IMG/VR virus record: IMGVR_UViG_2724679058_000007
Reading direction: 5' to 3' (one strand)
DNA length: 35,236 bases
From: a virus
Lineage: Duplodnaviria; Heunggongvirae; Uroviricota; Caudoviricetes
Shown here in pieces: positions 2,320 through 35,236 of the stretch (its first letter is position 1; every line of letters begins with the position of its first letter). Below the pieces are notes generated by a model. That model was not told the origin of the DNA, ran no database searches, and worked only from the letters and a program-made list of their open reading frames with translations. The position numbers and the translations under genes are program-made.

Positions 2320-3501
2320 TTATCTCCCGATTGCAATCCATCGAGCGTAAATAAAGGCTGGTGATGATGTTGAATTTAATAATTTGAACTGAGTATTGCT
2401 GATAGGTTGAGCTGCAAAGCTATATACAGCTGAAGCGCCAGCGTTATCATAAGAAGCAACAAGCTGAACTGTACTGTAATTTGTAAAAGGTACGGGGAAA
2501 TTTATAGTCTGCGGATCTCCAATTTGACCAGAGGCTGCAATACCCCACTGGATAATAGTACCTCCTGGTAAAGATGCCCAGCCGGTACCGCTTGTAAAAC
2601 TTGACATATCCGGTATTTGTCCAGAACCTGTACCCACATTTTTTGTTGCCGCCGTTCCAAGCCCGGAAATATCAGATGATGTTGGTTTAAATCCTGTGTG
2701 GTACAACTTATACCAGTCAGAAAATGCAGTATCACTCGCTTTTATCCTCACACTAAAGTCAGGAATGGAACCGAGAGACGCACCGCAGATTTGCCACCCG
2801 GTTGAACCTGAGTTAGCAAATGAAATACCACCAGCCCACTGCCCAGGATAAGGACCGATATTATCTGCAGGGGCAAAATAATCAAAGCGACTGACGTCCA
2901 ACGTCGCCATAGTTCCGCTTACCTGGGCTGCCTTTATTCCAAGCCCCCACCCGCCATTTAAAGCAATTTTACCCGTTTTATCTGTGAAGGATGATTGCAG
3001 TGTTCCCAAACCAAGGTTTTTGACAAACAGCGCCGGGTCAGGAATATCAGCGCCGTTCTGGTCTTTGGCCAGCTTCTCCGCCAGCTTGTTCAACACAGTG
3101 GTCGCAAAATTCGGATCGTTGCCGAGGGCATCAGCCAGCTCTTTGAGCGTATCCAGCGTCTCAGGGGCGCTGCCTGCAAGCGCCGCAAGTGCTTTGGCCA
3201 CAAACTCCGTCGTCGCCAGCTTCTTGCTGTTATCGCTATTTGCAGGCGTAGGCGCTGTTGGTGTGCCGGTGAATGTCGGGCTGGCTTTCGGTGCGTACTG
3301 GGTATGCGGGTCTGCTGCCGCGATATGTTTCGCAAGGTCAGAACCGCCATTTTCAACCTGTTGCTTCAGGTACAGCGTGCGGCTGGCCAGTTGTTTACCC
3401 TGACGGTTAGAAATTCCGTCAGGCCCGCCCAGAACGGGGTCAGAGACCTCAATCTGGTAGATGCCCTCTTCCCACTGCGGGGTTTCAGGTAGGTTTGCCA
3501 T
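2320..3501 (-). CDS. Tail fibre protein (constant N-terminal part plus currently expressed variable C-terminal part)
   Basis: 393 aa, MANLPETPQWEEGIYQIEVSDPVLGGPDGISNRQGKQLASRTLYLKQQ; the hix-like site falls at about codon 160; the C-terminal two thirds are AT-rich and Gly/Ser-rich. Confidence 0.85.
   Translation of the reverse strand: MANLPETPQWEEGIYQIEVSDPVLGGPDGISNRQGKQLASRTLYLKQQVENGGSDLAKHIAAADPHTQYAPKASPTFTGTPTAPTPANSDNSKKLATTEFVAKALAALAGSAPETLDTLKELADALGNDPNFATTVLNKLAEKLAKDQNGADIPDPALFVKNLGLGTLQSSFTDKTGKIALNGGWGLGIKAAQVSGTMATLDVSRFDYFAPADNIGPYPGQWAGGISFANSGSTGWQICGASLGSIPDFSVRIKASDTAFSDWYKLYHTGFKPTSSDISGLGTAATKNVGTGSGQIPDMSSFTSGTGWASLPGGTIIQWGIAASGQIGDPQTINFPVPFTNYSTVQLVASYDNAGASAVYSFAAQPISNTQFKLLNSTSSPAFIYARWIAIGR
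3001..3025 (-). repeat. hix/gix-like invertase crossover site (right), inside the tail-fibre gene at the constant/variable junction
   Basis: Plus strand TGTTCCCAAACCAAGGTTTTTGACA; inverted copy of the 806-830 site. It encodes the shared KNLGLG motif in both tail-fibre variants. A compositional break (GC-rich constant part versus AT-rich variable part) coincides with it. Confidence 0.8.
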
Positions 3502-3503
3502 AA

Positions 3504-4081
3504 TTAACTGCTCCCGTGGTTATAGCTACCGTCATAGTTGACGGTGTTGTTGTAGCGAATGGCGACAGACTGATACTCAAGGCTCGCCAGATGGCAGCGG
3601 GCCGGAGCAAAGGCAGCGAGCGTCTGGCGTAACAGCGCCGCCTGATCGTTAGTAATGGGCTGCTGAAGGATGACGCGATAGACCGCCCAGCTTCTGCATC
3701 GCCATGGACGAAAAGCCCGTTGTACGTGTGTTTGCCGTCGTAGCCAATCTGGCCAGTGCCTTCAATCAGATCCACTTCGCCGAAGCCGAAACGGCGGATA
3801 ATTTCCCGGATTGACCACGGCGTCCCTTTATAGCGGTGCAGCTCGATAGCAGATTTGATAAGCATGCGGCGTACATCGTCCGATTCCGCCAGCTCCCAGC
3901 CATCGCCAAACAGCGAGAACTGCTCGCCCAGCCATGGCAGCGCGGAACTGTCGACGATATCGACGAGATAGACCATCAGTACGCTCAGGTCGATGTTATC
4001 CAGCCGCCCGGCCAGTTTTCCCAGCGTTCTGAGGCTGATATCACCCTCAAGCGGCGGCGGGAGTTGTAGCGGCTCAGCCAT
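3504..4081 (-). pseudogene. Tail/baseplate protein, P2 gpI-like (DUF2313-like), with an apparent frameshift near 3685-3702
   Basis: Frame of ORF 3485..4081 gives a plausible N-terminus up to ...GQIGYDGKHTYNGLFVHGDAE, then low-complexity residues (RSIASSFSSPLLTIRRRCYARRSL...). A shifted frame reads ...AVYRVILQQPITNDQAALLRQTLAAFAPARCHLASLEYQSVAIRYNNTVNYDGSYNHGSS and stops at 3504-3506, 2 nt before the tail-fibre start. Confidence 0.6.
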
Positions 4082-5177
4082 CGGACACCCCGGTCATGTT
4101 AAGAGTGATCGCCGTGCAGTTTGCCCATTCGTTTTCTGCCACCACCCGCAGTGGCGGTGTCACCAGTTCAACCTGGTACACCCCGGAGACGGACAACACA
4201 CTGATAATCTGGCTGGGAACAATATCGCGCCCCAGCGTGGCGGTACGTGATGCCACCCAGTTCTGTATGGCGCTGTTGGCGTTGTCCTTTACCGAGTTGG
4301 CATCCTGGTCGCGGTAGATCGTGATATTGGCTTCAATGGTGTAATCCACCTGCAGAGGTGTTTTAGCCCGCACGGTATCAGTAAGTGGCCTGACTTTTTC
4401 GTCAGAACAGAAACTCTCTACCAGCGTGAGGATGCTGTCGTCCGGCAGGCCGGTACTGAGCAGCGGATACAGCTCTACGGTACCGGGGACCGGGGAAAGC
4501 ACGGCAACATCGACAATGTTGGGATGGGCCTGCATGGCATGAAAGCGGTATGCCATACGGCTTCCGGCGTTGGTGAATGACTCCGGGGCCAGTTTGATAC
4601 GCTCGCGGAGCCTGTCATTGTCTTCCTGCTCAGAACCGCCAGAACTGGCCGCCATATTGGTCACCTGCAGGTCGACGTTATCAATCTCATCGAGCAACTG
4701 ACTGACCTGCGCAGGCTGCCAGCCGTTGCCTGCGGCTCCCGGCTCGGTACAGGTGGCCGTGGCATTGACAAGCAGCAATCCGGCTTTCAGCACTACGTCC
4801 GTATCGGTTGCAAAAATAATGCTGTCGGAAGCGCTGACGCGGGTACCTGCCGGAATCAGCACATCAATGGCCAGTTCCTCATCCACGGAGAACTGGAGCG
4901 TGGTGGTGGCAGGCTGCGCGGCCAGTCGGTATACACCAACCAGTTCACCGAGGTAATCAATCATCGGCTCACGGGCAAAGGCGACCAGATTCTGTTTGGC
5001 CGCTTCCTGCGCCGCCACCCTGACCAGCATTTCGCGGTATGCCCACAGGTCAATCAACAGGCGCTCAGCCTGAGCGGGGTATAGCGTCTTGCCAGTTGCG
5101 GCTTCGTACTGTGCAATCATTTCAGCCGTGATTTTGTCAGCATCACGTTCAATAAAATCGGGTTCTGTCAGCGCCAT
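4074..5177 (-). CDS. Baseplate J-like protein (Mu gp47 / P2 gpJ family)
   Basis: 367 aa; position between gpW-like and gpI-like genes; overlaps both neighbours. Confidence 0.75.
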   Translation of the reverse strand: MALTEPDFIERDADKITAEMIAQYEAATGKTLYPAQAERLLIDLWAYREMLVRVAAQEAAKQNLVAFAREPMIDYLGELVGVYRLAAQPATTTLQFSVDEELAIDVLIPAGTRVSASDSIIFATDTDVVLKAGLLLVNATATCTEPGAAGNGWQPAQVSQLLDEIDNVDLQVTNMAASSGGSEQEDNDRLRERIKLAPESFTNAGSRMAYRFHAMQAHPNIVDVAVLSPVPGTVELYPLLSTGLPDDSILTLVESFCSDEKVRPLTDTVRAKTPLQVDYTIEANITIYRDQDANSVKDNANSAIQNWVASRTATLGRDIVPSQIISVLSVSGVYQVELVTPPLRVVAENEWANCTAITLNMTGVSDG

Positions 5178-5515: not shown

Positions 5516-5569
5516 GGGGGCAGTATTGCCCCTGTGCGGGAACGCCGATATTAAAGGCGTTTAAGAAGG

Positions 5570-7454: not shown

Positions 7455-8335
7455 ACACTCCTCGCCAGAATTTTGGCTGCCATGCTGCTTAACCCCGGCG
7501 ACATACGGGTGAAGGTGGTGCTGGCGGAGTTAAGCTGCCCGGAAACGGCATCCAGCGCCGCTGCGATATTGCTGCCGTCCACGCCGCTCAGTGAAGACTG
7601 TGCCTGTTGTACATACGTGGCCGCATCACTGGTGGCTCTGGCCAGACTGATGGCATCAGGCATGGATTCAGAGAGCGCATTAAATGCCGGAACGCTTTGA
7701 CCCAACGCCCCGGACACGTTGCCGAGCCCGCTCATCAGCCCCGGTACGCGGGTCAGTGCAACGGTGGGGTTATCCTTCATTTTCTGCGCCACCCGAACGG
7801 CGCTGATGGTGGTCTGGAGAACAGACTGCGCCTGTTTGGCATAGTTGACGCCGTCGCGGACGTACTGCGCCACCCCGGAAGGTGAAGGAACGGCACCGGA
7901 GACCGCCCCGACGCCGGGAACCGTTGTGCGTATTGCAGGAGGCTGTAGCGGGTTTTTCGGGTCGCCGATGTACTCCCGGAGAGACGCGGTGGCATTGACG
8001 GCCAGCACGTTGCCGGTGCTGTCGGTTTGCTCGCTGGTCGCAGTAACATCGGTAATCACGAACCAGCCGCGATAGTCACCGTTGCCGAAGACCAGCGCCA
8101 GCGCCTGATGGGCCTTCATGGCCGTTCGCAGCCTCGCCAGCTCCACGTCAGGCACACAATAGTGCTGATGGAAGACCAGGCTTATCTGGATCTCGTCCAG
8201 CTTATCGCCAACGAACTGCAGGCCGGGCTTACCCTCGATACGGGGATGCTCCGCATAATCGACGCCGAACGTGGCTTCGAAGCCGTCCCAGTAGGTAATC
8301 AGTTCAAACTCAATATCACCCAGTACTGCAAACAT
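7451..8335 (-). CDS. Tail protein, DNA circulation (Mu N-like) family
   Basis: 294 aa, MFAVLGDIEFELITYWDGFEATFGVDYAEHPRIEGKPGLQFVGDKLDEI; directly downstream of the tape measure gene. Confidence 0.5.
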   Translation of the reverse strand: MFAVLGDIEFELITYWDGFEATFGVDYAEHPRIEGKPGLQFVGDKLDEIQISLVFHQHYCVPDVELARLRTAMKAHQALALVFGNGDYRGWFVITDVTATSEQTDSTGNVLAVNATASLREYIGDPKNPLQPPAIRTTVPGVGAVSGAVPSPSGVAQYVRDGVNYAKQAQSVLQTTISAVRVAQKMKDNPTVALTRVPGLMSGLGNVSGALGQSVPAFNALSESMPDAISLARATSDAATYVQQAQSSLSGVDGSNIAAALDAVSGQLNSASTTFTRMSPGLSSMAAKILARSV

Positions 8336-10800
8336 CAGCTGTACCTCCTGCGTTGTTGCTGAGCCAGCAGACGCTCCAGCATTTTCTCCAGCTCATGCAG
8401 GCTCATATTCAGTGCGCCGGTCAGTCCGGCAGGCGCGGCTGTCTCTTTACCATTGAGGAAAAACTGAGGATTAAAGCTGACCTGGATACCGCCAGACGTT
8501 CCGCCACCGGACGCTGCTGCGCCACGGCCTGAATATCCCGCAGCCATGATTTCCGGCGACGGGATACGGGGAACATCCGGTGTCATTTCGGCGGCCAGGC
8601 GTTGACCAGCCAGTGCAGCAAGTGGTGTGGTGCGCTGCAGGCCGATAGCGGCACCCTGCGCGATGTTGTCACCAAAGCCTATAAACACGCGGCTCGGCGA
8701 ATGAATACCCAGCTTTTCCTTGAACCAGCCGCCGACGCTGTCGCCCATATCGGTTACGGTGGTTTTGAGCGACTCCCATTTGTTTTTGATGCCGTTTATC
8801 AGCCCGTCAATAAGATGACCACCGAAGTCGGTGAACTTCGCAGGCAGGTCAACGCCGAGATACTTCAGTGCAGCCGCAAAGGCTTTATAGAGCAAACCAA
8901 CCGGCGACCAGTTAATCAGCAGCTTACCAATCCCCACGACACCGCCATTAAACGCCTCTTTAATGTCAGCCCAGCGCTGTTTAAACCAGCTACTGACTGC
9001 GCCCCAGTTGCGATAAATAAGGTAAGCTGCTGCCGCGACGGCGGTGATGGCGAGACCAATGGGATTCATCAGCAGCGCCCGGCCAATCCAGAGAACGGCC
9101 CGCCCGGCGATCATAATGCCGCGAACCAGCCCACCTGACAGCACACCACCCAGTGTTCTGGCTCCTCTGGCGACGCCGCTGAAGCCGGTCACCAGCCAGC
9201 GGAGCTTACCGCCTTCACCGAGTGCAAGCGACAGTCGAAGCCAGTTGGCCCGCAGTAAAACGGCATTTTTCCAGACGTTAACAAAGGGGGAAATAAGGAG
9301 ATTCAGCCCCAGCTTGAGACCGATAGTGGCCATCTTGAAAGCGAGTAATGCTCCTACAACCTTTATGGTGCCGCTGACGATTTGCGGGTTTGCCGCTATC
9401 CATTTGCCGACACTGTCCATTAAAGGAATAAAAGTCTCACCCAGTTGGATCAAGGCCGGGCGTAGTGACTCACCAATGCTGATGGCTGCCTCGTTAAAAC
9501 CAATCTGAGTTCTGCGCCAACGACCTTCGAGCGTATTATTTTGTTTTGCAGCATCCTTATCCAGCGTAGACATTGCTGACGGGGTATTCATTTCCTGCTT
9601 GCTGGAAAGGTATTTATCCCAGCCCTGACGCATTGACAGTAAATGGTTAACGGTCTGAATATCAGTGAAGACTTCTGCCAGACCAAATGACTCCATTAGC
9701 TTCTGCTGGCCTTCCTGATCGCCTCTTGAGCCTGCTGCTTTCCATTGCTGTAAAAACGCCTTACCTTTACCGTCGATAAAACGGTTGGCAATCATCAGTG
9801 AGGCTTCATACTGTGAGAAGCCCTGAGCGACGTAATTCTGCATTGACCCCTGGTAATCCACCCCGGCTTTAGCATATTTCTGGATGGTATCTCCGCGTCC
9901 CATCGCCGCCAGCCAGTTTGACATATTGGTGACGGCCTCTTCCGCTGAGCCGCTGCCTTTACCAACTTCCAGACTGGCGACGATCTGGGTTATGGCATCT
10001 TTGCCGTAAATACCACGTGCAGCGAAGGCTTTGGCCATACCAGGTAACGCTTTCGCCATATCCTTCAGTTCAAACGAGCCTAGCTTAGCCCCAGTTGCCG
10101 CAATCCCAAACGCCTGCTCCAGTTCTTTGGCATCGGTAATTTTCAGTGCATCGCTAAAGGCGTAGGTCATTTTTGCGAGGTCAGTCATATCCGCTTTGGT
10201 GGCCGTGGCAGCTTTACCGAGCATCCCGGCAAAGGTCGCTGCCTGCTGCGGATTCATGCCATCGGCAACCAGTTGACCAACACCGCCCAACAGAGATTCC
10301 TGGAGCTGATTGACCTGCAGGGATGCCCGACGAATGGCAGTACCGATGGCCTGTTCCTGCCTTGAATCCAGATCACCAGTGACACTGATATCCCGCAACT
10401 GCGATTCAAACGAGGCATATTGTTTGACTGAGGCCATGACCGGTGCCCCCAGTGTTCTGCCGATGGCATAGGTTTCTGCTCCCTGGCCATAGAGTGCCAT
10501 GCGGTTAGCTTTCAGCGCGTCACTGGTGGCTGATACTGCTGACAGACGGCGCTGCTGGCGCTCAATTTGCTCCATTGTGCGACTTACCCGCAGCAGGTCG
10601 CTGTTGAGGCGCTGCATACGGGAAGAGCCTAACTGGCCATAACGTTCAGTTGCACGGGTTAAGGCATTCTGGCGTTCCTGCAGGCGGCGCGATGTATCGC
10701 CCAGGGAATCAAGGGCGCGTCGGGTACCGCTGACGGCAGAACGGAAGCTGCTCCCGACAATGCCGCCAATAATGACGCCGACTGAAAATTCACTGGCCAC
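8335..10800 (-). CDS. Tail tape measure protein
   Basis: 821 aa, alpha-helical/Ala-Gly-rich with hydrophobic central segments; probable GTG start with GAGGA upstream; positioned after the tail chaperone. Confidence 0.85.
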   Translation of the reverse strand: MASEFSVGVIIGGIVGSSFRSAVSGTRRALDSLGDTSRRLQERQNALTRATERYGQLGSSRMQRLNSDLLRVSRTMEQIERQQRRLSAVSATSDALKANRMALYGQGAETYAIGRTLGAPVMASVKQYASFESQLRDISVTGDLDSRQEQAIGTAIRRASLQVNQLQESLLGGVGQLVADGMNPQQAATFAGMLGKAATATKADMTDLAKMTYAFSDALKITDAKELEQAFGIAATGAKLGSFELKDMAKALPGMAKAFAARGIYGKDAITQIVASLEVGKGSGSAEEAVTNMSNWLAAMGRGDTIQKYAKAGVDYQGSMQNYVAQGFSQYEASLMIANRFIDGKGKAFLQQWKAAGSRGDQEGQQKLMESFGLAEVFTDIQTVNHLLSMRQGWDKYLSSKQEMNTPSAMSTLDKDAAKQNNTLEGRWRRTQIGFNEAAISIGESLRPALIQLGETFIPLMDSVGKWIAANPQIVSGTIKVVGALLAFKMATIGLKLGLNLLISPFVNVWKNAVLLRANWLRLSLALGEGGKLRWLVTGFSGVARGARTLGGVLSGGLVRGIMIAGRAVLWIGRALLMNPIGLAITAVAAAAYLIYRNWGAVSSWFKQRWADIKEAFNGGVVGIGKLLINWSPVGLLYKAFAAALKYLGVDLPAKFTDFGGHLIDGLINGIKNKWESLKTTVTDMGDSVGGWFKEKLGIHSPSRVFIGFGDNIAQGAAIGLQRTTPLAALAGQRLAAEMTPDVPRIPSPEIMAAGYSGRGAAASGGGTSGGIQVSFNPQFFLNGKETAAPAGLTGALNMSLHELEKMLERLLAQQQRRRYS

Positions 10801-10892
10801 GGTTGTTATCCTCTGAAAGCGGAAAAACGGAAGGAAAATGTCTGAGAGCCATGCAGAACAGCCGCGAGGGGCGGCTGTTAAGTGATGAGTCG

Positions 10893-11000
10893 TTACTGAT
10901 TGTCGCCGAACTCGCTTTTGATTTGCTCTTCAGCCTGCTCCAGCCACATCTCCAGATCGTCAGTATCGAGGGCATCAATCTCCCCCGGCTGAAATCTAAA
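10893..11000 (-). CDS. Possible frameshift extension of the tail assembly chaperone (E'-like)
   Basis: The +1 frame stays open across the chaperone stop and encodes ...LARWFRFQPGEIDALDTDDLEMWLEQAEEQIKSEFGDNQ. No canonical slippery heptamer identified. Confidence 0.3.
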   Translation of the reverse strand, partial: FRFQPGEIDALDTDDLEMWLEQAEEQIKSEFGDNQ

Positions 11001-11310
11001 CCACCTCGCCAGCAGCCCCTGCGCCTGCATCAGCGTTTTCGTCGCTCTTGCCCAGCCCAGTGACTTGCTGAAATCGTTTCTGCAGCTCCATGTAATCGGC
11101 AAGATCCATGTTATCGAGGTCTTCGGGGAGAATACCGGTGCTACGGGCAATGAGCGGCTCGTCCCAGTCAGCCGGGTCTTTACTGATTTTGCGCACCTGC
11201 TTCAGGTCTTTGACCGTCAGGCGTTTCAGTTCAACCTGCTCAACTCTGGTGCCTGCTGCGGTGGTGAAGGGGTAAGACAGCTTAAAAGTATCGGATTGGG
11301 TCTGTGACAT
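10996..11310 (-). CDS. Tail assembly chaperone (P2 gpE-like)
   Basis: 104 aa with ...ILPEDLDNMDLADYMELQKRFQQVTG, resembling gpE-type chaperones; located between tube and tape measure genes. Confidence 0.65.
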   Translation of the reverse strand: MSQTQSDTFKLSYPFTTAAGTRVEQVELKRLTVKDLKQVRKISKDPADWDEPLIARSTGILPEDLDNMDLADYMELQKRFQQVTGLGKSDENADAGAGAAGEVV

Positions 11311-11386
11311 GATCGTGCTCCTGTGTAAGTTCAGAGCAGTATGTCTGGAGGTGGACGTGACGGATATTAAAGGGGATTAAGAAGAA

Positions 11387-11402
11387 AGGGGCCGAAGCCC
11401 CT
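11387..11402 (-). terminator. Rho-independent terminator (minus strand)
   Basis: Minus-strand RNA AGGGGCUUCGGCCCCU (6-bp GC stem, UUCG loop) followed by UUCUUCUU, just after the stop of ORF 11409..11690. Confidence 0.7.
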
Positions 11403-11408
11403 GTGATA

Positions 11409-11690
11409 TCAGTGAGTGCGAAAGCCTTTGCAGTTACGCAGGAAGGCGATAAGAAGCGCCTTTCCTTCAGATTTGCCGATGCCGGTGAACCAGTGGTCAG
11501 GTGGCTCCCATGCCTCAATCAGGTCAGCGAGCTTCCGTGCTTTAGAGCGGGTGCAGTCAATCGGGTCATTGGTTTTCTGGGTATTAAAAAGGTTTTCCAC
11601 CCCCGGAATATCAAGGATGGTAAACCACGTACCATTTCCCATGCCAATCGAACCACAGTTCCTGCCTTTATCTTCAATCTCGACGGTCAC
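11409..11690 (-). CDS. Hypothetical protein (93 aa) between tail tube and tail chaperone genes
   Basis: ORF MTVEIEDKGRNCGSIGMGNGTWFTILDIPGVENLFNTQKTNDPIDCTRSKARKLADLIEAWEPPDHWFTGIGKSEGKALLIAFLRNCKGFRTH; tightly spaced after the tube gene; no family recognised. Confidence 0.5.
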   Translation of the reverse strand: MTVEIEDKGRNCGSIGMGNGTWFTILDIPGVENLFNTQKTNDPIDCTRSKARKLADLIEAWEPPDHWFTGIGKSEGKALLIAFLRNCKGFRTH

Positions 11691-11692
11691 CG

Positions 11693-12214
11693 TCAGCCCC
11701 CGATATTGATGCGGTAGTCAGTCAACTGGTCAACGCCGCCGACTCGGAAGATGTTGGCCAGATAGTCCAGCTCCAGCAGCTCTTCACCATCCAGTACCTG
11801 CTTGATGTACGTGCAGGTGAAGCTGCTAGAGAACTCGGCGTTCTCGTGCTGTTTGAACGTCCCCAGCGGGTTCTTCTTGAACATGATCGTCAGGAATGTG
11901 ACCAGCGGGATTTCGTCAATCAGCCCCTGCGAACTGTAGCGCTGGACGCTGGAACGGCACTGCAGCGCCAGCGACTTATACGGGTTCGCAGCAGACAGCA
12001 TCGCGTCGCGGTAAAAGCTGTTCCACTTGATCTCACCCTCCAGCTTGTCGAAGCCTGCCGGGAGTTCCACTTTGCCCACCATCCCCAGCGCCTTATGCTC
12101 CTGCATGGTCATGGAGACGTCCGGGAGTTTGACCTCCTCGGCCCGGCCCAGCAGGTTAGCGCCATCCAGGTAGATGTTGGCATTCGTGATGCGGTTGATC
12201 TCAATCTTTGCCAT
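11693..12214 (-). CDS. Tail tube protein
   Basis: 173 aa, MAKIEINRITNANIYLDGANLLGRAEEVKLPDVSMTMQEHKALGMVGKVELPAGFDKLEGEIKWNSFYRD; directly after the sheath gene. Confidence 0.85.
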   Translation of the reverse strand: MAKIEINRITNANIYLDGANLLGRAEEVKLPDVSMTMQEHKALGMVGKVELPAGFDKLEGEIKWNSFYRDAMLSAANPYKSLALQCRSSVQRYSSQGLIDEIPLVTFLTIMFKKNPLGTFKQHENAEFSSSFTCTYIKQVLDGEELLELDYLANIFRVGGVDQLTDYRINIGG

Positions 12215-13641
12215 CAGCTATTCCCCTTCAGGGTTAACAGATATTCCGAGGTGATCTCGGTCTCAAACGTCAGTCGCTCCAGCGGTGGTGGTGGCGTGTA
12301 TTTGTAGCTCAGCAACAGGTGACCGGCGGCAAGCTCCGTCTCTTCGTTGCGGGCCGGATCAAACCAGCAGCTGAAGCCCAGCAGCGCACCGTCGCCAATC
12401 AGCTTGCGACCGTAGGCGTTGACCGACTCCGTCAGCGCATCAATCAGCGCCTGGGTAATCGGCATGTCGATGTACTGCTGGCTGAAGTAACGCAGGGACT
12501 CGTTGATCACATCACCGGTACGGCGAACGTTCTCAAAGTTGCGCATATGGGTGACCGTTGGCCATGCCGCCATACGGTTGCCCCACAGACGCAGGCCGCT
12601 GCCGTAGCTGCTGAAGACCGTGGTGATGCCCTGTTCGTTGAGCAGGTTCACCTCGCTCTGCGGGTCGTCAATCATTGCCGACAGCTGGCGCTCCACGCCG
12701 GTGATACCCAGAATTTCCTGGTTGGAGGACGACCACCAGTAGCCCTTGTCCAGGTCGACTTTGGCACGCAGACCTGCAGCACGCTGGCTCAGCGGCTCCA
12801 GCCGTTCGCTGTTGGTGGCCGCGTCGTACACCTTGACGTGCGGGTAGCACAGACGGACGCGGTCGGAGCTGGTGTTGAAGTTAATGGTGCCTTCCGGGCC
12901 ACGCCCCGCCAGAGCCTGCGCAAAAGTGGTACCAATCGGCGCGTCGATGTAGGTCACCGCGCCCAGCTTCTCAGCCATGGCGATAAGCTCAACCGAGACG
13001 CTGTTCTGGGTGCAGAAGACCGGGGCAATCAGTATTTTTGCGAAGTAGCCAAACAGGTTGAAGCTGTCGTTAAGCAGCTTCATGCCGGTACGGTTGCCCG
13101 CAGCGTTAACGGCACCGATGATATCAGCCGGGGTGACTTTAGTTGGATCAGCATAGTTATAGCTGGCCTTCACCGTTGCATCTGCGGCAATGCTCTTACC
13201 AAGGTTGGTAATCACTCCGGTCTGTGCATCAAGCGAGTAGTCCTGACCTTCCACATAAGGCTGGCCATCGCTGTCCGGTTTCAGTACCAGCTGCGCGACC
13301 ACCGGATTAGCCAGCTGTGCCTTGCCCGTCGCCTTGTCGAACGTTACATCTTCATCGGCCACAGCGGTTTTATGCACAGCCGGATCAAGCACGTTAATGA
13401 CCAGAACGGTGCCTGCCCCATGGTCGTAGATCGCATCCAGCGCCTGCGGAATGGTAAAACCGGTGAGCTGGCTGCCAAACGCCGCTGCATCTTTCTCAGA
13501 CAGGCACTGCACCAGCGTATTGACGTCCCCCATCGGGGCGGTACCAATCAGGCCAATGACGGCAGACTTCACCGTTTTTACCGGGCGGGCACCGTTTTCC
13601 ACCTCAATGGTTTCGACGCCATGCAGATAGTTAGCTGCCAT
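12214..13641 (-). CDS. Contractile tail sheath protein
   Basis: 475 aa, MAANYLHGVETIEVENGARPVKTVKSAVIGLIGTAP; size and synteny. Confidence 0.85.
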   Translation of the reverse strand: MAANYLHGVETIEVENGARPVKTVKSAVIGLIGTAPMGDVNTLVQCLSEKDAAAFGSQLTGFTIPQALDAIYDHGAGTVLVINVLDPAVHKTAVADEDVTFDKATGKAQLANPVVAQLVLKPDSDGQPYVEGQDYSLDAQTGVITNLGKSIAADATVKASYNYADPTKVTPADIIGAVNAAGNRTGMKLLNDSFNLFGYFAKILIAPVFCTQNSVSVELIAMAEKLGAVTYIDAPIGTTFAQALAGRGPEGTINFNTSSDRVRLCYPHVKVYDAATNSERLEPLSQRAAGLRAKVDLDKGYWWSSSNQEILGITGVERQLSAMIDDPQSEVNLLNEQGITTVFSSYGSGLRLWGNRMAAWPTVTHMRNFENVRRTGDVINESLRYFSQQYIDMPITQALIDALTESVNAYGRKLIGDGALLGFSCWFDPARNEETELAAGHLLLSYKYTPPPPLERLTFETEITSEYLLTLKGNS

Positions 13642-17225: not shown

Positions 17226-17439
17226 TTTGCTGTCCCGCGTTACGTTGTCGGGGACAGTCTGTGGAAAAAGCGTCAGCGGCGCTTTTAATCTGCTTTAGAA
17301 AAAATCGGGGGTATCAGTACGGGGAATGTCACGCTGCAGGCGAATAGTGGTGCAAAGCGGGGGCTGTAAAGCCTTTATAAAGGTAATACAGCCCCTCAGC
17401 GGCTGGCAATGATAAATCACCCGCCTGTAGAGACAAAAC
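17226..17439 (-). promoter_or_regulatory. Structured intergenic spacer between G-like and I-like genes; candidate late promoter/regulatory region
   Basis: Contains an imperfect 36-bp palindrome (17359-17395: GGGGCTGTA..CCTTTATAAAGG..TACAGCCCC), a hairpin AAAAGCG/CGCTTTT (17265-17286), and a stem CTGTCCC/GGGACAG (17230-17257) next to the I-gene start. Confidence 0.4.
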
Positions 17440-24614: not shown

Positions 24615-24745
24615 GGGTGTCTCCTTGTTGTGTGGGAGACAGCATCACAAATGTGGCGGGATACGGATTTTAAAGCGCGTTATAAGTGTTCGCAGAGGGA
24701 AGCGGCCAGAATGGTGGCACACAAAACACAGGGGAGGCAAGCACG

Positions 24746-25069
24746 ATGACTGAACCGAAACAGACCGGTCTTAAAAAAGGGTTCCTCTTTGGGATCAGAA
24801 CCGGAGAGCAGAATAAAACTTACACGCTAAGCGTGGATGCCAGTTGCCCAACCGAGGCGATTGCAGAACTGAGAAACGCGCTGACGGCGCTTGAAACGCG
24901 AAGCAGCCATTTCGCCAGCGGAGAAAACAACGTCATGATGATTGGCAATGTGGCGGCGACATCACGATATAAAGCCGTACCTAATCCTACTACTCAGTTA
25001 TCCGGCGACCAACGAAGACTGGAAGCGGAATCAGCAGTTCCCAGAACGGTTCTTCCTCACCAGTCTTAA
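24746..25069 (+). CDS. Hypothetical protein (108 aa)
   Basis: ATG preceded by GGGGAGG; MTEPKQTGLKKGFLFGIRTGEQNKTYTLSVDASCPTEAIAELRNALTALE...; its 3' end overlaps the convergent ORF 24990..25556. Confidence 0.4.
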   Translation: MTEPKQTGLKKGFLFGIRTGEQNKTYTLSVDASCPTEAIAELRNALTALETRSSHFASGENNVMMIGNVAATSRYKAVPNPTTQLSGDQRRLEAESAVPRTVLPHQS

Positions 25070-25556
25070 CCGGGGCCGCTTCTCCCGCCCAGTAAAGCCA
25101 GGCCCGGTGATATAATTCCAGCACCGGGCAATCACTGTTCAATAACCTCATATCTCCGCGATGCACCGGCTCATCTGTGATTACTTCATATATCGGTGCC
25201 GTTCTGATTTCGTCTTCGCCTCTCTCATCGGCCAGTAATGCCCGGAACTTCCTGACTTCACTCAGATGCTGACAGGCAAACAGTGACTGATAGCGGGAAG
25301 GTTTGTCAGGAAAATGGCTACGGCGAACTAACTCAAACACCAGACCGACCAGCAGACTTCTGCTGACTCCACTGTCATCTTCCATTTTAGGGCCGGGGTT
25401 ATAGAGATAGTTATGACCGTGCTTGGAAAGACCATCGGGATACATCTGATGAAGGAAAGCGGCCAGCTCCGGCGCTTCAGGTTCGTATTTTCCGGTAATT
25501 ACATGGCAAGGCGAAGGCAGACGATTAGCGGAATCAAGTGTGTAATACGTTCCCAT
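24990..25556 (-). CDS. Hypothetical protein (188 aa), accessory locus
   Basis: ORF MGTYYTLDSANRLPSPCHVITGKYEPEAPELAAFLHQMYPDGLSKHGHNYLYNPGPKMEDDSG...; no family recognised. Confidence 0.5.
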   Translation of the reverse strand: MGTYYTLDSANRLPSPCHVITGKYEPEAPELAAFLHQMYPDGLSKHGHNYLYNPGPKMEDDSGVSRSLLVGLVFELVRRSHFPDKPSRYQSLFACQHLSEVRKFRALLADERGEDEIRTAPIYEVITDEPVHRGDMRLLNSDCPVLELYHRAWLYWAGEAAPVKTGEEEPFWELLIPLPVFVGRRITE

Positions 25557-25664
25557 TCAGAAAACAATCCTTATCGAACAAACACTGCACGTAGGTAACA
25601 CATCCAGTAAATCGCGTTAATAGAAAACAGTTATCCATAAGCCTCATCCTGACAATGAAAGAAC

Positions 25665-25696
25665 GACCAGCCCGGTGCGGTAACACCAGGCTGGTC
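25665..25696. repeat. 13-bp inverted repeat with 6-bp spacer upstream of the methyltransferase gene
   Basis: GACCAGCCCGGTG cggtaa CACCAGGCTGGTC (one mismatch); additional perfect palindrome GTCTCGCGAGAC at 25741-25752; GACCAG occurs three times in the spacer. Confidence 0.5.
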
Positions 25697-25799
25697 ATCA
25701 ACCCACAGGTATGCACTGTGAGCCGACCAGGGTTCAGTCAGTCTCGCGAGACCAGACTAGCCTGCCATATTTTCACTGATTGCAAAAGGCTTACGGATA

Positions 25800-26570
25800 A
25801 TGAAAGAACAATCTTTACCCATCGTTCCATGGATTGGCGGCAAACGTCGTCTGGCTAAGCATATTCTGCCGCTGTTCCCGGCCCATACCTGCTATGTGGA
25901 GCCGTTCTGTGGGGCCGCTGCGCTCTATTTTCTTAAGACACCCAGCAAGACCGAAGTCATTAACGATATCAACGGGGAACTGGTGAACCTCTATCGGGTG
26001 GTCAAGCATCATCTGGAAGAATTTGTTCGCCAGTTCAAATGGGCGCTGGTCAGCCGTCAGATTTACAAATGGTTGCAGGATACGCCGGAAGAAACTCTCA
26101 CCGACATTCAGCGGGCGGCCCGGTTCTACTACCTGCAGAAACAGGCGTTTGGCGGCAAGGTGGCCGATCACTCGTTCGGAACCTCCACCACAAGTGCGCC
26201 GCGCTTTAACCTCCTGCGCATCGAAGAAGAACTGTCGATGGCACACCTGCGCCTGTCGAGAACGCTGATAGAGCATCTGGACTGGCACCAGTGCATAGAG
26301 CGATATGATCGCCCGCATACGCTGTTCTACTGTGACCCACCATACTGGGGAACAGAGGGCTATGGTGTGGAGTTCGGGCTGGAAAACTATGATCACATGG
26401 CAGATTTAGCGCGAAGGATCAAAGGGAAGATGATTATATCAGTGAACGATATCCCGGAAATGCGGCAGGTATTCAACGGTCTGAACATGCAGTCGGTTGA
26501 TATCAGCTACAACCTTAAGGTAACAGGTAAACCCAGCCCGAAGAAAGAGCTGGTAATTTGTAATTTTTGA
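25800..26570 (+). CDS. dam: DNA adenine (N6) methyltransferase, Dam family, orphan
   Basis: 256 aa; N-terminal PIVPWIGGKRRLAKHILPLFP, AdoMet motif EPFCGAAALYF and catalytic DPPY (FYCDPPYWG); no adjacent restriction enzyme recognised. Confidence 0.8.
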   Translation: MKEQSLPIVPWIGGKRRLAKHILPLFPAHTCYVEPFCGAAALYFLKTPSKTEVINDINGELVNLYRVVKHHLEEFVRQFKWALVSRQIYKWLQDTPEETLTDIQRAARFYYLQKQAFGGKVADHSFGTSTTSAPRFNLLRIEEELSMAHLRLSRTLIEHLDWHQCIERYDRPHTLFYCDPPYWGTEGYGVEFGLENYDHMADLARRIKGKMIISVNDIPEMRQVFNGLNMQSVDISYNLKVTGKPSPKKELVICNF

Positions 26571-26584
26571 AAGAGGTAGTTAAA

Positions 26585-34432: not shown

Positions 34433-34850
34433 GCAGCGTTTTATTCAACTCATCCATATTGCCCGCAATGACCTCCAGATGGATGAGGATACCTACCGCC
34501 AGATGCTACAGGGGCTGACCGGCAAAGCCTCAACCAAAGGGATGGATACCACACAACTAAACCGCGTGCTGGACTCCATGAAAAAGAAAGGCTTTCGCAT
34601 TAAGTCTGCCGGGAAAGCCAGGCCCGGCTTACCGCTGGATAGCCATCCGCAGTCAAAGAAAATCCGTGCGCTATGGCTTGAAATGGCTACGGCAGGCGTC
34701 GTCCGAGACAGTTCAGAGCAGGCGCTGGCGCTATGGGTTAAACGGGAAACGGGCATCAGCGCGTTACGCTGGCTCAGCAATGAGCAAGCAAGTAGCGTGA
34801 TTGAGAAACTGAAGAAGTGGCAGCGCAGAGCTGCGGGGGTGAAGCAATGA
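34422..34850 (+). CDS. gemA: GemA-like protein (Mu gp16 family)
   Basis: Start at ATGATG with AAGGAG 6 nt upstream; MMTRQRFIQLIHIARNDLQMDEDTYRQMLQGLTGKASTKGMDTTQLNRVLDSMKKKGF. Confidence 0.6.
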   Translation: MMTRQRFIQLIHIARNDLQMDEDTYRQMLQGLTGKASTKGMDTTQLNRVLDSMKKKGFRIKSAGKARPGLPLDSHPQSKKIRALWLEMATAGVVRDSSEQALALWVKRETGISALRWLSNEQASSVIEKLKKWQRRAAGVKQ

Positions 34851-35236
34851 GCGACCTGAATCAGTTTCGTAGTAAAGGGCCGGAACTGTTGGTAGAGCTG
34901 GCACAGCATACCTCTGAGACCGTCCGCGAGATTATTGATATCGAACCCGCAGTTGCCGACCAGATTGGTCAGGCCGTAGCGAACCGCATGATGCAGGTCT
35001 GGGGCGGGCAAAACGTCTATTTCCCGATGGGCATGGTCTGGAAGGTCAGCCAGCGCGATCGGGAAATCTTTCTGGAGTTTGACGGGCGCAACCATCACGA
35101 ACTGGCCCGCAAATTTGGTGTTTCGCTACAGTGGGTTTACAGCGTGGTGAAGCGGGTCAGAAAAGAAGAACTGGATCGGATGCAGGGCAAACTGTTTGAT
35201 GGCGAACCTGATGCCGATACGGGGAAAAAGGAGTAA
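34847..35236 (+). CDS. mor: Mor/C-family transcriptional activator
   Basis: Start at MSDLNQF (ATGA overlap with the gemA-like stop); C-terminal HTH region ...REIFLEFDGRNHHELARKFGVSLQWVYSVVKRVRKEE; ends at the last base of the window. Confidence 0.65.
   Translation: MSDLNQFRSKGPELLVELAQHTSETVREIIDIEPAVADQIGQAVANRMMQVWGGQNVYFPMGMVWKVSQRDREIFLEFDGRNHHELARKFGVSLQWVYSVVKRVRKEELDRMQGKLFDGEPDADTGKKE

Follow-up and report, generated by a model that had tools for sequence, protein, structure and literature searches.

An uncharacterized 93-codon accessory gene at a recurrent insertion site between the tail tube and tail chaperone genes of a BcepMu-like prophage

The 35,236-nucleotide (nt) stretch of viral DNA analyzed here (IMG/VR record IMGVR_UViG_2724679058_000007; below, the window) is essentially one BcepMu-like transposable prophage, which combines Mu-type head and transposition genes with a P2-type tail. 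We analyzed a small open reading frame (ORF) of 93 codons, ORF93, at the junction between its tail tube and tail assembly chaperone genes. The late genes in this part of the window all lie on the minus strand, in the order sheath, tube, ORF93, a terminator-like hairpin, chaperone and tape measure (Table 1). ORF93 starts 2 nt beyond the tube stop codon (11693–11695), and the hairpin lies 6 nt beyond the ORF93 stop codon. The ORF list and the Pfam and PHROG matches confirm the coordinates and the description in an earlier note on this DNA, namely an ORF of 93 amino acids (aa) after the tube gene, a hairpin behind it, and sheath, tube and chaperone genes as neighbors. Our analysis has shown that ORF93 is an uncharacterized accessory gene at a recurrent insertion site.

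Its pattern of conservation identifies ORF93 as a real and presumably translated gene. The ratio of non-synonymous to synonymous substitution rates (dN/dS), calculated for the window and Escherichia phage PhiKM, is 0.15 for ORF93, compared with 0.14 for the sheath, 0.15 for the chaperone and 0.03 for the tube gene. The position of the start codon is shared, being GTG in ORF93 of Escherichia coli and ATG at the same place in Photorhabdus. An alignment of 50 family members, down to about 30% identity, retains the motifs MxVE (first residues), NGTWF, TNDP, W.PP and F..C.GF.T, residues N19, D42, C87, G89 and F90 of ORF93 are among those conserved, and ORF93 matches the PHROG 1239 profile (E-value 1.8e-45) over its full length, residues 1–93 on profile positions 1–96 of 96. 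Some pipelines call a 77-aa version starting from Met17; since the N-terminus is conserved, the 93-aa length is favored.

The match to the Pfam family DUF7739 (PF24881) is weaker: ORF93 scores 18.9 bits (E-value 0.0022) with residues 15–63 only, below the gathering cut-off of 27 bits, while 12 of the 50 family members match the model at E-values up to 0.1, the best at 7.3e-19. On these scores ORF93 appears to be a related but sub-threshold member of DUF7739. The earlier claim that ORF93 has no recognizable family therefore did not stand as worded, although both families are of unknown function. The family is small. An exhaustive profile search of 1.84 billion representatives (clustering at 50% identity) yielded 78 clusters only, nearly all of them stand-alone proteins of about 90–100 aa, with a few weak matches to longer proteins; in two large homology searches and a cluster look-up, the only name of the relatives was "hypothetical protein". 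The nucleotide composition of ORF93 is foreign to its surroundings: its G+C content is 51%, and 57% at third codon positions, compared with 57% and 82%, respectively, in the tube gene.

To describe the distribution of ORF93, we surveyed tube loci using one genome per species; 74 loci were fetched, and 69 of them had both the tube and the chaperone genes. Thirty two of the 69 loci carry no cargo, with an interval of −1 to 172 nt between the two genes; 14 carry an intact ORF93; six or seven carry a truncated (Photorhabdus and Mixta) or frameshifted (Apirhabdus) ORF93; 12 carry other genes; and in four loci, all from Lonsdalea, the interval is 290–345 nt long and holds no assignable ORF. There is no gene between tube and chaperone in BcepMu, phiE255, the Salmonella SARB27 prophage, Ralstonia YO107_2 and Pseudomonas phage Bise, and an Erwinia tracheiphila prophage with a 98% identical tube protein lacks ORF93 in its 128-nt interval. 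By this comparison ORF93 is a lineage-specific insertion and dispensable. Thus the proposal that it was inserted between tube and chaperone genes was borne out; the companion statement that this junction is normally direct was not, as the enterobacterial relatives without cargo typically have 120–170 nt there, containing a terminator and a conserved promoter-like motif. The pattern of presence and absence marks ORF93 as accessory and largely refutes a conserved structural component. A separate observation concerns a decayed prophage (locus L016, a Logan contig of SRR21898912): sheath, tube and chaperone are fragmented, the 93-aa ORF93 homolog at positions 3001–3282 is intact (70% identity), and the terminator stem has one mismatch. 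As a single case, it may at most hint that the host retains ORF93.

The hairpin behind ORF93 (AGGGGC-UUCG-GCCCCU, followed by UUCUUCUUAAU) has a stem of six base pairs, five of them G-C, a cUUCGg loop, and seven U in the first nine nucleotides past GCCCC. Its folding energy is −11.8 kcal/mol (z = −3.0 relative to shuffled sequences, 3 of 200 of which fold as well). Hence the G+C-rich stem, short loop, 3' U-tract and position after a stop codon expected of an intrinsic terminator are all present; of the "near-ideal" terminator described earlier, the hairpin, the UUCG loop and the U-rich tail stood, but the stem is short and the U-tract interrupted.

Of the 69 loci, 54 have a hairpin with a T-tail, irrespective of cargo. 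It precedes the chaperone start by 71–97 nt in the enterobacterial clade, again whether cargo is present or not, and cargo-less Pectobacterium prophages carry the identical AGGGGCTTCGGCCCCT. Equivalent hairpins of other lineages are GGCCCGC-UUCG-GCGGGCC followed by U6 in BcepMu and phiE255 (−16.6 kcal/mol), GCCCAC-UUCG-GUGGGC in Ralstonia (−12.0) and CUUCGGGGC-UGCG-GCCCCGAA in Salmonella (−16.5); further stems at the same position with T-tails are GGAGGGA/TCCCTCC and GGGAGAG/CTCTCCC. Within the ORF93-bearing lineage the stem GGGGC/GCCCC is fixed and the loop varies (UUCG, UCCG, AUCA). Across lineages the letters of the stem differ completely and the hairpin persists, that is, the structure rather than the sequence is conserved. 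The predicted terminator is thus ancestral and part of the phage backbone, and not a part of the insertion, as had been supposed. Because relatives without cargo have the hairpin at the same place in the alignment, ORF93 was inserted behind the tube stop codon and ahead of a hairpin that was already there.

A search of positions 10700–12400 against Rfam gave no match. In phage P2 (locus L017, positions 1990–2045), a hairpin CCGGTCAGC-CUG-GCUGACCGG without a U-tract is located just after the tube gene FII, so that P2-type tail modules may generally have some structured element behind the tube gene.

Between the hairpin and the chaperone gene lies a two-box motif, TTTAATATC-N20-ATACTG. Its exact pattern occurs twice in the window, compared with 0.00 expected from shuffled sequences, and there is one near-copy (Table 1). 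The three copies, which precede the holin, chaperone and baseplate W genes, are all intergenic, lie on the late-gene strand, share the upstream extension CTTMTTAA..C.CC, and combine to the form TTTAAWATC-N20-AT(A/G)CTG. Of the 69 relatives, 36 carry the two boxes, whether cargo is present or not, and the distance to the chaperone ATG is constant (28 nt in most). Across enterobacterial relatives the boxes and the 20-nt length of the spacer are conserved and the spacer sequence has diverged, and each 5.5-kb locus contains a single match.

Phage Mu has Mor- and C-dependent middle and late promoters. The window resembles it in encoding a Mor-family activator at the end of the early operon, and in having three intergenic sites on the late strand with a −35-region box and a weak −10-like box at fixed spacing; it differs in that the candidate motif sequence is specific to this clade. 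The two-box motifs are probably activator-dependent, that is Mor-dependent, late promoters, and with the three of them the late genes would probably fall into three operons. Only 5 nt separate the annotated ATG of baseplate W from the end of its −10-like box; the W mRNA might be leaderless, or the start codon mis-set. We also considered the hairpin as an activator site of the downstream promoter and rejected this, as BcepMu has a different spacing from the hairpin to any −10-like box and Pectobacterium has an extra 19 nt between the T-tail and the promoter boxes.

The tube–chaperone junction is a hotspot of cargo genes. In five genera, a 99-aa gene of the Gp49/Sf6-gp66 family (PF13876, E-value 2e-12) is stacked between the tube gene and ORF93 (Buttiauxella, Pseudocitrobacter, Limnobaculum, Pantoea and Apirhabdus; loci L018, L019, L021, L025 and L029, positions ~3019–3318), and the stop and start codons of the stacked genes overlap (TGATCATG; ATGA), for example in Buttiauxella. 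Like the family of ORF93, the Gp49/Sf6-gp66 family is otherwise found in accessory regions of lambdoid phages. Four loci have a 66-aa ORF in the slot, and in Pantoea an insertion sequence (IS) element is located at the junction. Larger cargo is placed after the terminator: Neisseriaceae bacterium TC5R-5 (locus L073, positions 3096–4343) carries a CdiA-CT RNase-A toxin gene (PF18431, E-value 1e-31) with a CdiI_2 immunity gene (PF18593, E-value 1e-17), and Chromobacterium sphagni (locus L071, positions ~740–2900) carries a 2.2-kb island of minus-strand ORFs.

In six Pectobacterium species (loci L055, L057, L059, L062, L063 and L064; positions ~3040–3372) the slot is occupied by a ferredoxin-like ORF of 110 aa. 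Its match to the 2Fe-2S ferredoxin family PF00111 is borderline (21.6 bits, cut-off 21), and a reading against the plant-type ferredoxin consensus suggests that other residues stand in place of the cluster-binding cysteines (PYSSRAGADPSSAARL). Pectobacterium imports plant ferredoxin, and pectocin M bacteriocins enter cells via their ferredoxin domain; a cluster-less ferredoxin mimic on a phage may merit attention.

With a predicted terminator followed by a candidate promoter, we infer that the junction is an operon boundary. Such a boundary would make it a hotspot because genes can be added there without polar effects.

Regarding the expression of ORF93 itself, a scan limited to the sigma-70 type found no convincing promoter in the 3' end of the tube gene; the best candidate, TTGACC-19 nt-CAATAT, has 8 of 12 matches and lies inside the tube coding sequence. 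The 2-nt gap, the GTG start and the Shine-Dalgarno-like GGGGG run, which is made by the conserved C-terminal Gly-Gly codons of the tube, suggest that translation of ORF93 is coupled to that of the tube. ORF93 most likely shares a transcript with sheath and tube late in the lytic cycle; the expectation of the earlier note that these genes are expressed together is a reasonable one, because ORF93 is located upstream of the terminator. If it holds, ORF93 is made along with an abundant structural protein.

Full-length homologs with 37–51% identity were found by TBLASTN in Sf6 (gene 22), HK75 (gp27), CUS-3, phiv205-1, EPP-1, the P1-like vB_EcoM-813R1 and other phages of about 95 kb. They have the same size and the same motifs as ORF93, often a GTG start, and no known function. 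Their location differs: in lambdoid and P22-like genomes (Sf6, HK75, EPP-1 and several prophages) the homolog belongs to the early-left operon, between the recombination genes and xis/int and next to Ea22-type genes, and in 813R1 to a variable region, whereas ORF93 is in a tail operon. No conserved partner gene was found beside the distant homologs beyond the usual Ea22-type neighbors. In all these settings the homolog would be silent in the lysogen and expressed in lytic growth.

The predicted product of ORF93 has a mass of 10.4 kDa, an isoelectric point (pI) of 6.7 and a net charge of −0.3, and lacks a hydrophobic segment (the highest Kyte-Doolittle average over 19 residues is 0.66). The AlphaFold2 (AF2) model is a small alpha/beta fold of the order beta-beta-alpha-beta-alpha-alpha-beta, with a mean predicted local distance difference test score (pLDDT) of 87 and a predicted template modeling score (pTM) of 0.79. 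The sensitive profile and structure searches that the earlier note had suggested placed the protein in PHROG 1239, of unknown function, and gave no significant fold match in the PDB. A search of BFVD structures returned uncharacterized viral proteins only; profile searches of PADLOC and NCBIfam gave no match at E-values up to 10, the profile search against PDB sequences gave nothing, and a literature search on DUF7739 found nothing.

The predicted fold weakly resembles small inhibitor and immunity proteins. A CdiI-type immunity gene would have its cognate toxin gene next door, and ORF93 has none. A DNA-mimic protein was considered and rejected, since ORF93 is neutral and the charge is not conserved in the family, where pI ranges from 4.05 to 9.74 and net charge from about −10 to +5 (the common E. 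coli variant P0007 has a pI of 8.8). We tentatively regard it as possible that ORF93 is soluble and binds a host target in lytic growth, for counter-defense or host takeover; a speculative anti-defense or host-interaction role would fit the usual location of the family in phage accessory regions.

Taken as a whole, the explanation that we consider reasonably probable is that ORF93 is a dispensable PHROG 1239 accessory gene, captured at a terminator-promoter operon boundary, whose product is a host-directed protein co-expressed late. One enterobacterial sub-lineage of the BcepMu-like transposable prophages would have acquired the gene there, behind the tube stop codon and ahead of a terminator that was already in place. 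This terminator would end a long late unit running from the lysis genes through the head genes to sheath and tube, and a late promoter just downstream, probably Mor-dependent, would restart transcription for the chaperone, tape measure and baseplate genes. ORF93, having no convincing promoter of its own, would be transcribed along with sheath and tube, its translation would be coupled to that of the tube, and its product, a soluble alpha/beta protein, would act in lytic development as a small binding or inhibitor protein against a host factor. In a broader form, the slot would be a dedicated "ride-along" site, whose cargo is made in bulk with the tube, and ORF93 would represent a new family of host-directed inhibitors, for counter-defense or host takeover, spread across Mu-like, lambdoid/P22-like and P1-like temperate phages; this form we regard as doubtful.

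Several points weigh against this explanation. The terminator and the downstream promoter are predictions from sequence, and a plain pattern scan of the region for terminator-like sites showed no enrichment (7 sites compared with 7.4 ± 2.6 in shuffled sequences); therefore, the significance of the hairpin rests on its conservation. As to the product, Foldseek gave no match in the PDB at E-values of 1e-3 or lower, the fold matches are weak (7–16% identity), no single electrostatic mechanism is conserved, and the databases, fold matches and literature searched gave no function for any family member. Counter-defense proteins are usually needed early in infection, and ORF93 is in a late operon. 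Finally, a homolog in Yersinia phage fHe-Yen8-01 (39% identity) is annotated as a "particle associated protein" and is located beside other particle-associated proteins, which could indicate a protein tied to the virion and not one that acts inside the cell; a literature search for the basis of this annotation found no paper.

ORF93 could also be a lysogenic-conversion moron, expressed from the repressed prophage and protecting the lysogen, for example as an orphan immunity protein that neutralizes a contact-dependent or secreted toxin, or by superinfection exclusion. We consider this unlikely: the lack of a convincing sigma-70 promoter speaks against it, as do the early-left location of the family elsewhere, in operons that are likewise silent in lysogens, the absence of a signal peptide or membrane segment in ORF93, and the decay of the gene in several lineages. 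That the protein is a virion-associated passenger, made late, packaged or attached, and carried into the next host cell in the manner of injected anti-restriction proteins, is quite improbable. Its gene is next to the tube gene in the most highly expressed late segment, and the label of the fHe-Yen8-01 homolog would agree with such a role, but the basis of this label could not be checked, most homologs are found in early operons of lambdoid phages, and phages with 98% identical tube proteins do without ORF93.

A role in tail structure or assembly, restricted to this phage family, would be consistent with the position between tube and chaperone and with late co-expression. Because ORF93 is absent or decayed in most related tail modules, even near-identical ones, and because its homologs in podoviruses and siphoviruses lie outside structural modules, we regard a structural role as very unlikely. 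A spurious ORF, be it untranslated filler or a decaying passenger, can hardly be credited: the "hypothetical protein" annotation, the 77-aa calls and the truncated copies would allow it, but the low dN/dS, the conservation that includes the first residues, the 78 clusters and the confident AF2 model contradict it, and antisense ORFs vary in length between relatives.

The preferred explanation, an accessory gene captured at the operon boundary, can be compared with several known systems. Lambdoid morons, such as gene 15 among the tail genes of HK97, were reportedly described by Juhala et al. in 2000 and by Cumby et al. in 2012. Similar to a classical moron in the definition of Hendrix, ORF93 is an extra, compositionally foreign and dispensable gene between genes that are adjacent in relatives. 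However, a moron comes with a promoter and a terminator of its own and is active in the prophage state, whereas ORF93 has no evident promoter and uses a terminator of the backbone; moreover, HK97 gp15 is a membrane protein and ORF93 would be soluble. The anti-CRISPR loci of Pseudomonas Mu-like phages, which Bondy-Denomy et al. are said to have described in 2013 inside the head-gene region, are likewise small interchangeable accessory genes in the late structural region of transposable phages; they differ in having their own promoter, an aca regulator, early expression and a proven function.

Hotspots of variable cargo with defense systems expressed in lysogens were described in P2-like phages and P4 satellites (PMC9122126, where the moron concept is also cited). 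The tail module here is P2-type as well, and in both cases unrelated small cassettes replace one another at a fixed backbone site. In contrast to those hotspots, which are located elsewhere in the genome and hold defense systems, the slot here closes a late structural operon at its 3' end and holds mostly single small ORFs, and ORF93 has no PADLOC match.

DMP12 of Neisseria (PDB 3w1o) is a DNA-mimic protein that binds HU (PMC3643605). It resembles ORF93 in fold only, with a sequence identity of 7%, and its acidic, DNA-like surface is not conserved in the ORF93 family. Following this fold match, a more specific version of the host-directed role is that ORF93 may modulate a nucleoid protein such as HU; the context of this version is that transposable phages depend on HU.

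Until a phenotype is found, ORF93 stays an ordinary uncharacterized accessory gene. The recurrent insertion site, with its boundary marked by a terminator and a likely late promoter, lends itself well to experiments. Other phage accessory genes could be sought in the slot, payloads could be expressed from it in engineered Mu-like phages, and ORF93 and its lambdoid relatives can be tested as one family.

The prophage is common in E. coli, and ORF93 is its one unexplained tail-region gene. A 1.4-kb query matched 643 of 5426 complete E. coli genomes, and the full tube–ORF93–chaperone order is present in 632 of the 643, including sequence type 131 (ST131) and ABU 83972. The prophage is 100% identical over the query to the copy in E. 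coli CFSAN051542, which is inserted in the nap-ccm region; the window shares 99.8% identity with "Klebsiella phage KP12" and 88.6% with PhiKM, a phage assigned to Bcepmuvirus.

Table 1. Features at and around the tube–chaperone junction and candidate late promoters (window coordinates)
Feature	Position	Strand	Evidence or remark
Two-box motif, exact copy	5521–5555	minus	between baseplate genes V and W; candidate third late promoter
Tape measure gene	8335–10800	minus	
Chaperone frameshift-extension ORF	10893–11030 or 10893–11150	minus	chaperone region in total 10893–11310
Tail assembly chaperone, gpE-type ORF	10996–11310	minus	PF10109, E-value 6.8e-23
Two-box motif TTTAATATC-N20-ATACTG	11337–11371	minus	candidate Mor-dependent late promoter of the chaperone/tape-measure operon
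Intrinsic-terminator-like element	11375–11402	minus	stem 11402–11387, U-rich tail 11386–11375
ORF93	11409–11690	minus	93 aa, GTG start; ORF translation and PHROG 1239 match
Tail tube gene (FII type)	11693–12214	minus	PF04985, E-value 1.1e-54; directly upstream of ORF93
Shine-Dalgarno-like GGGGG run	11697–11701	minus	6 nt upstream of the ORF93 GTG; sequence reading
Tail sheath gene	12214–13641	minus	PF04984 and PF17482; phrog_23
Two-box motif, near-copy	24640–24674	minus	upstream of the holin gene; candidate first late promoter
Mor-family transcription activator gene	34817–35236	plus	PF08765, E-value 1.2e-42

RefSeq names given in the chaperone region are "phage tail assembly protein" and "GpE family phage tail protein". 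At the left end of the window, positions 1–430 are host DNA (napB), as judged by the coordinate offset to locus L097. The CFSAN051542 prophage adjoins an IS421 that interrupts ccmA, and an insertion in nap-ccm is the kind of chromosomal location expected for a transposable phage. Between the late and the early regions, positions 24991–26571 contain a DUF2441 gene (minus strand) and a DNA adenine methylase gene (plus strand), a probable further accessory region of the prophage. Positions 17226–17439 (minus strand) form a 214-nt non-coding gap from the Mu G-like virion morphogenesis gene to the next head gene, which we take to be the position where Pseudomonas Mu-like phages carry anti-CRISPR genes. 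The gap holds a hairpin GGGGCTGTA...TACAGCCCC, and in KP12 a 41-aa ORF is annotated there.

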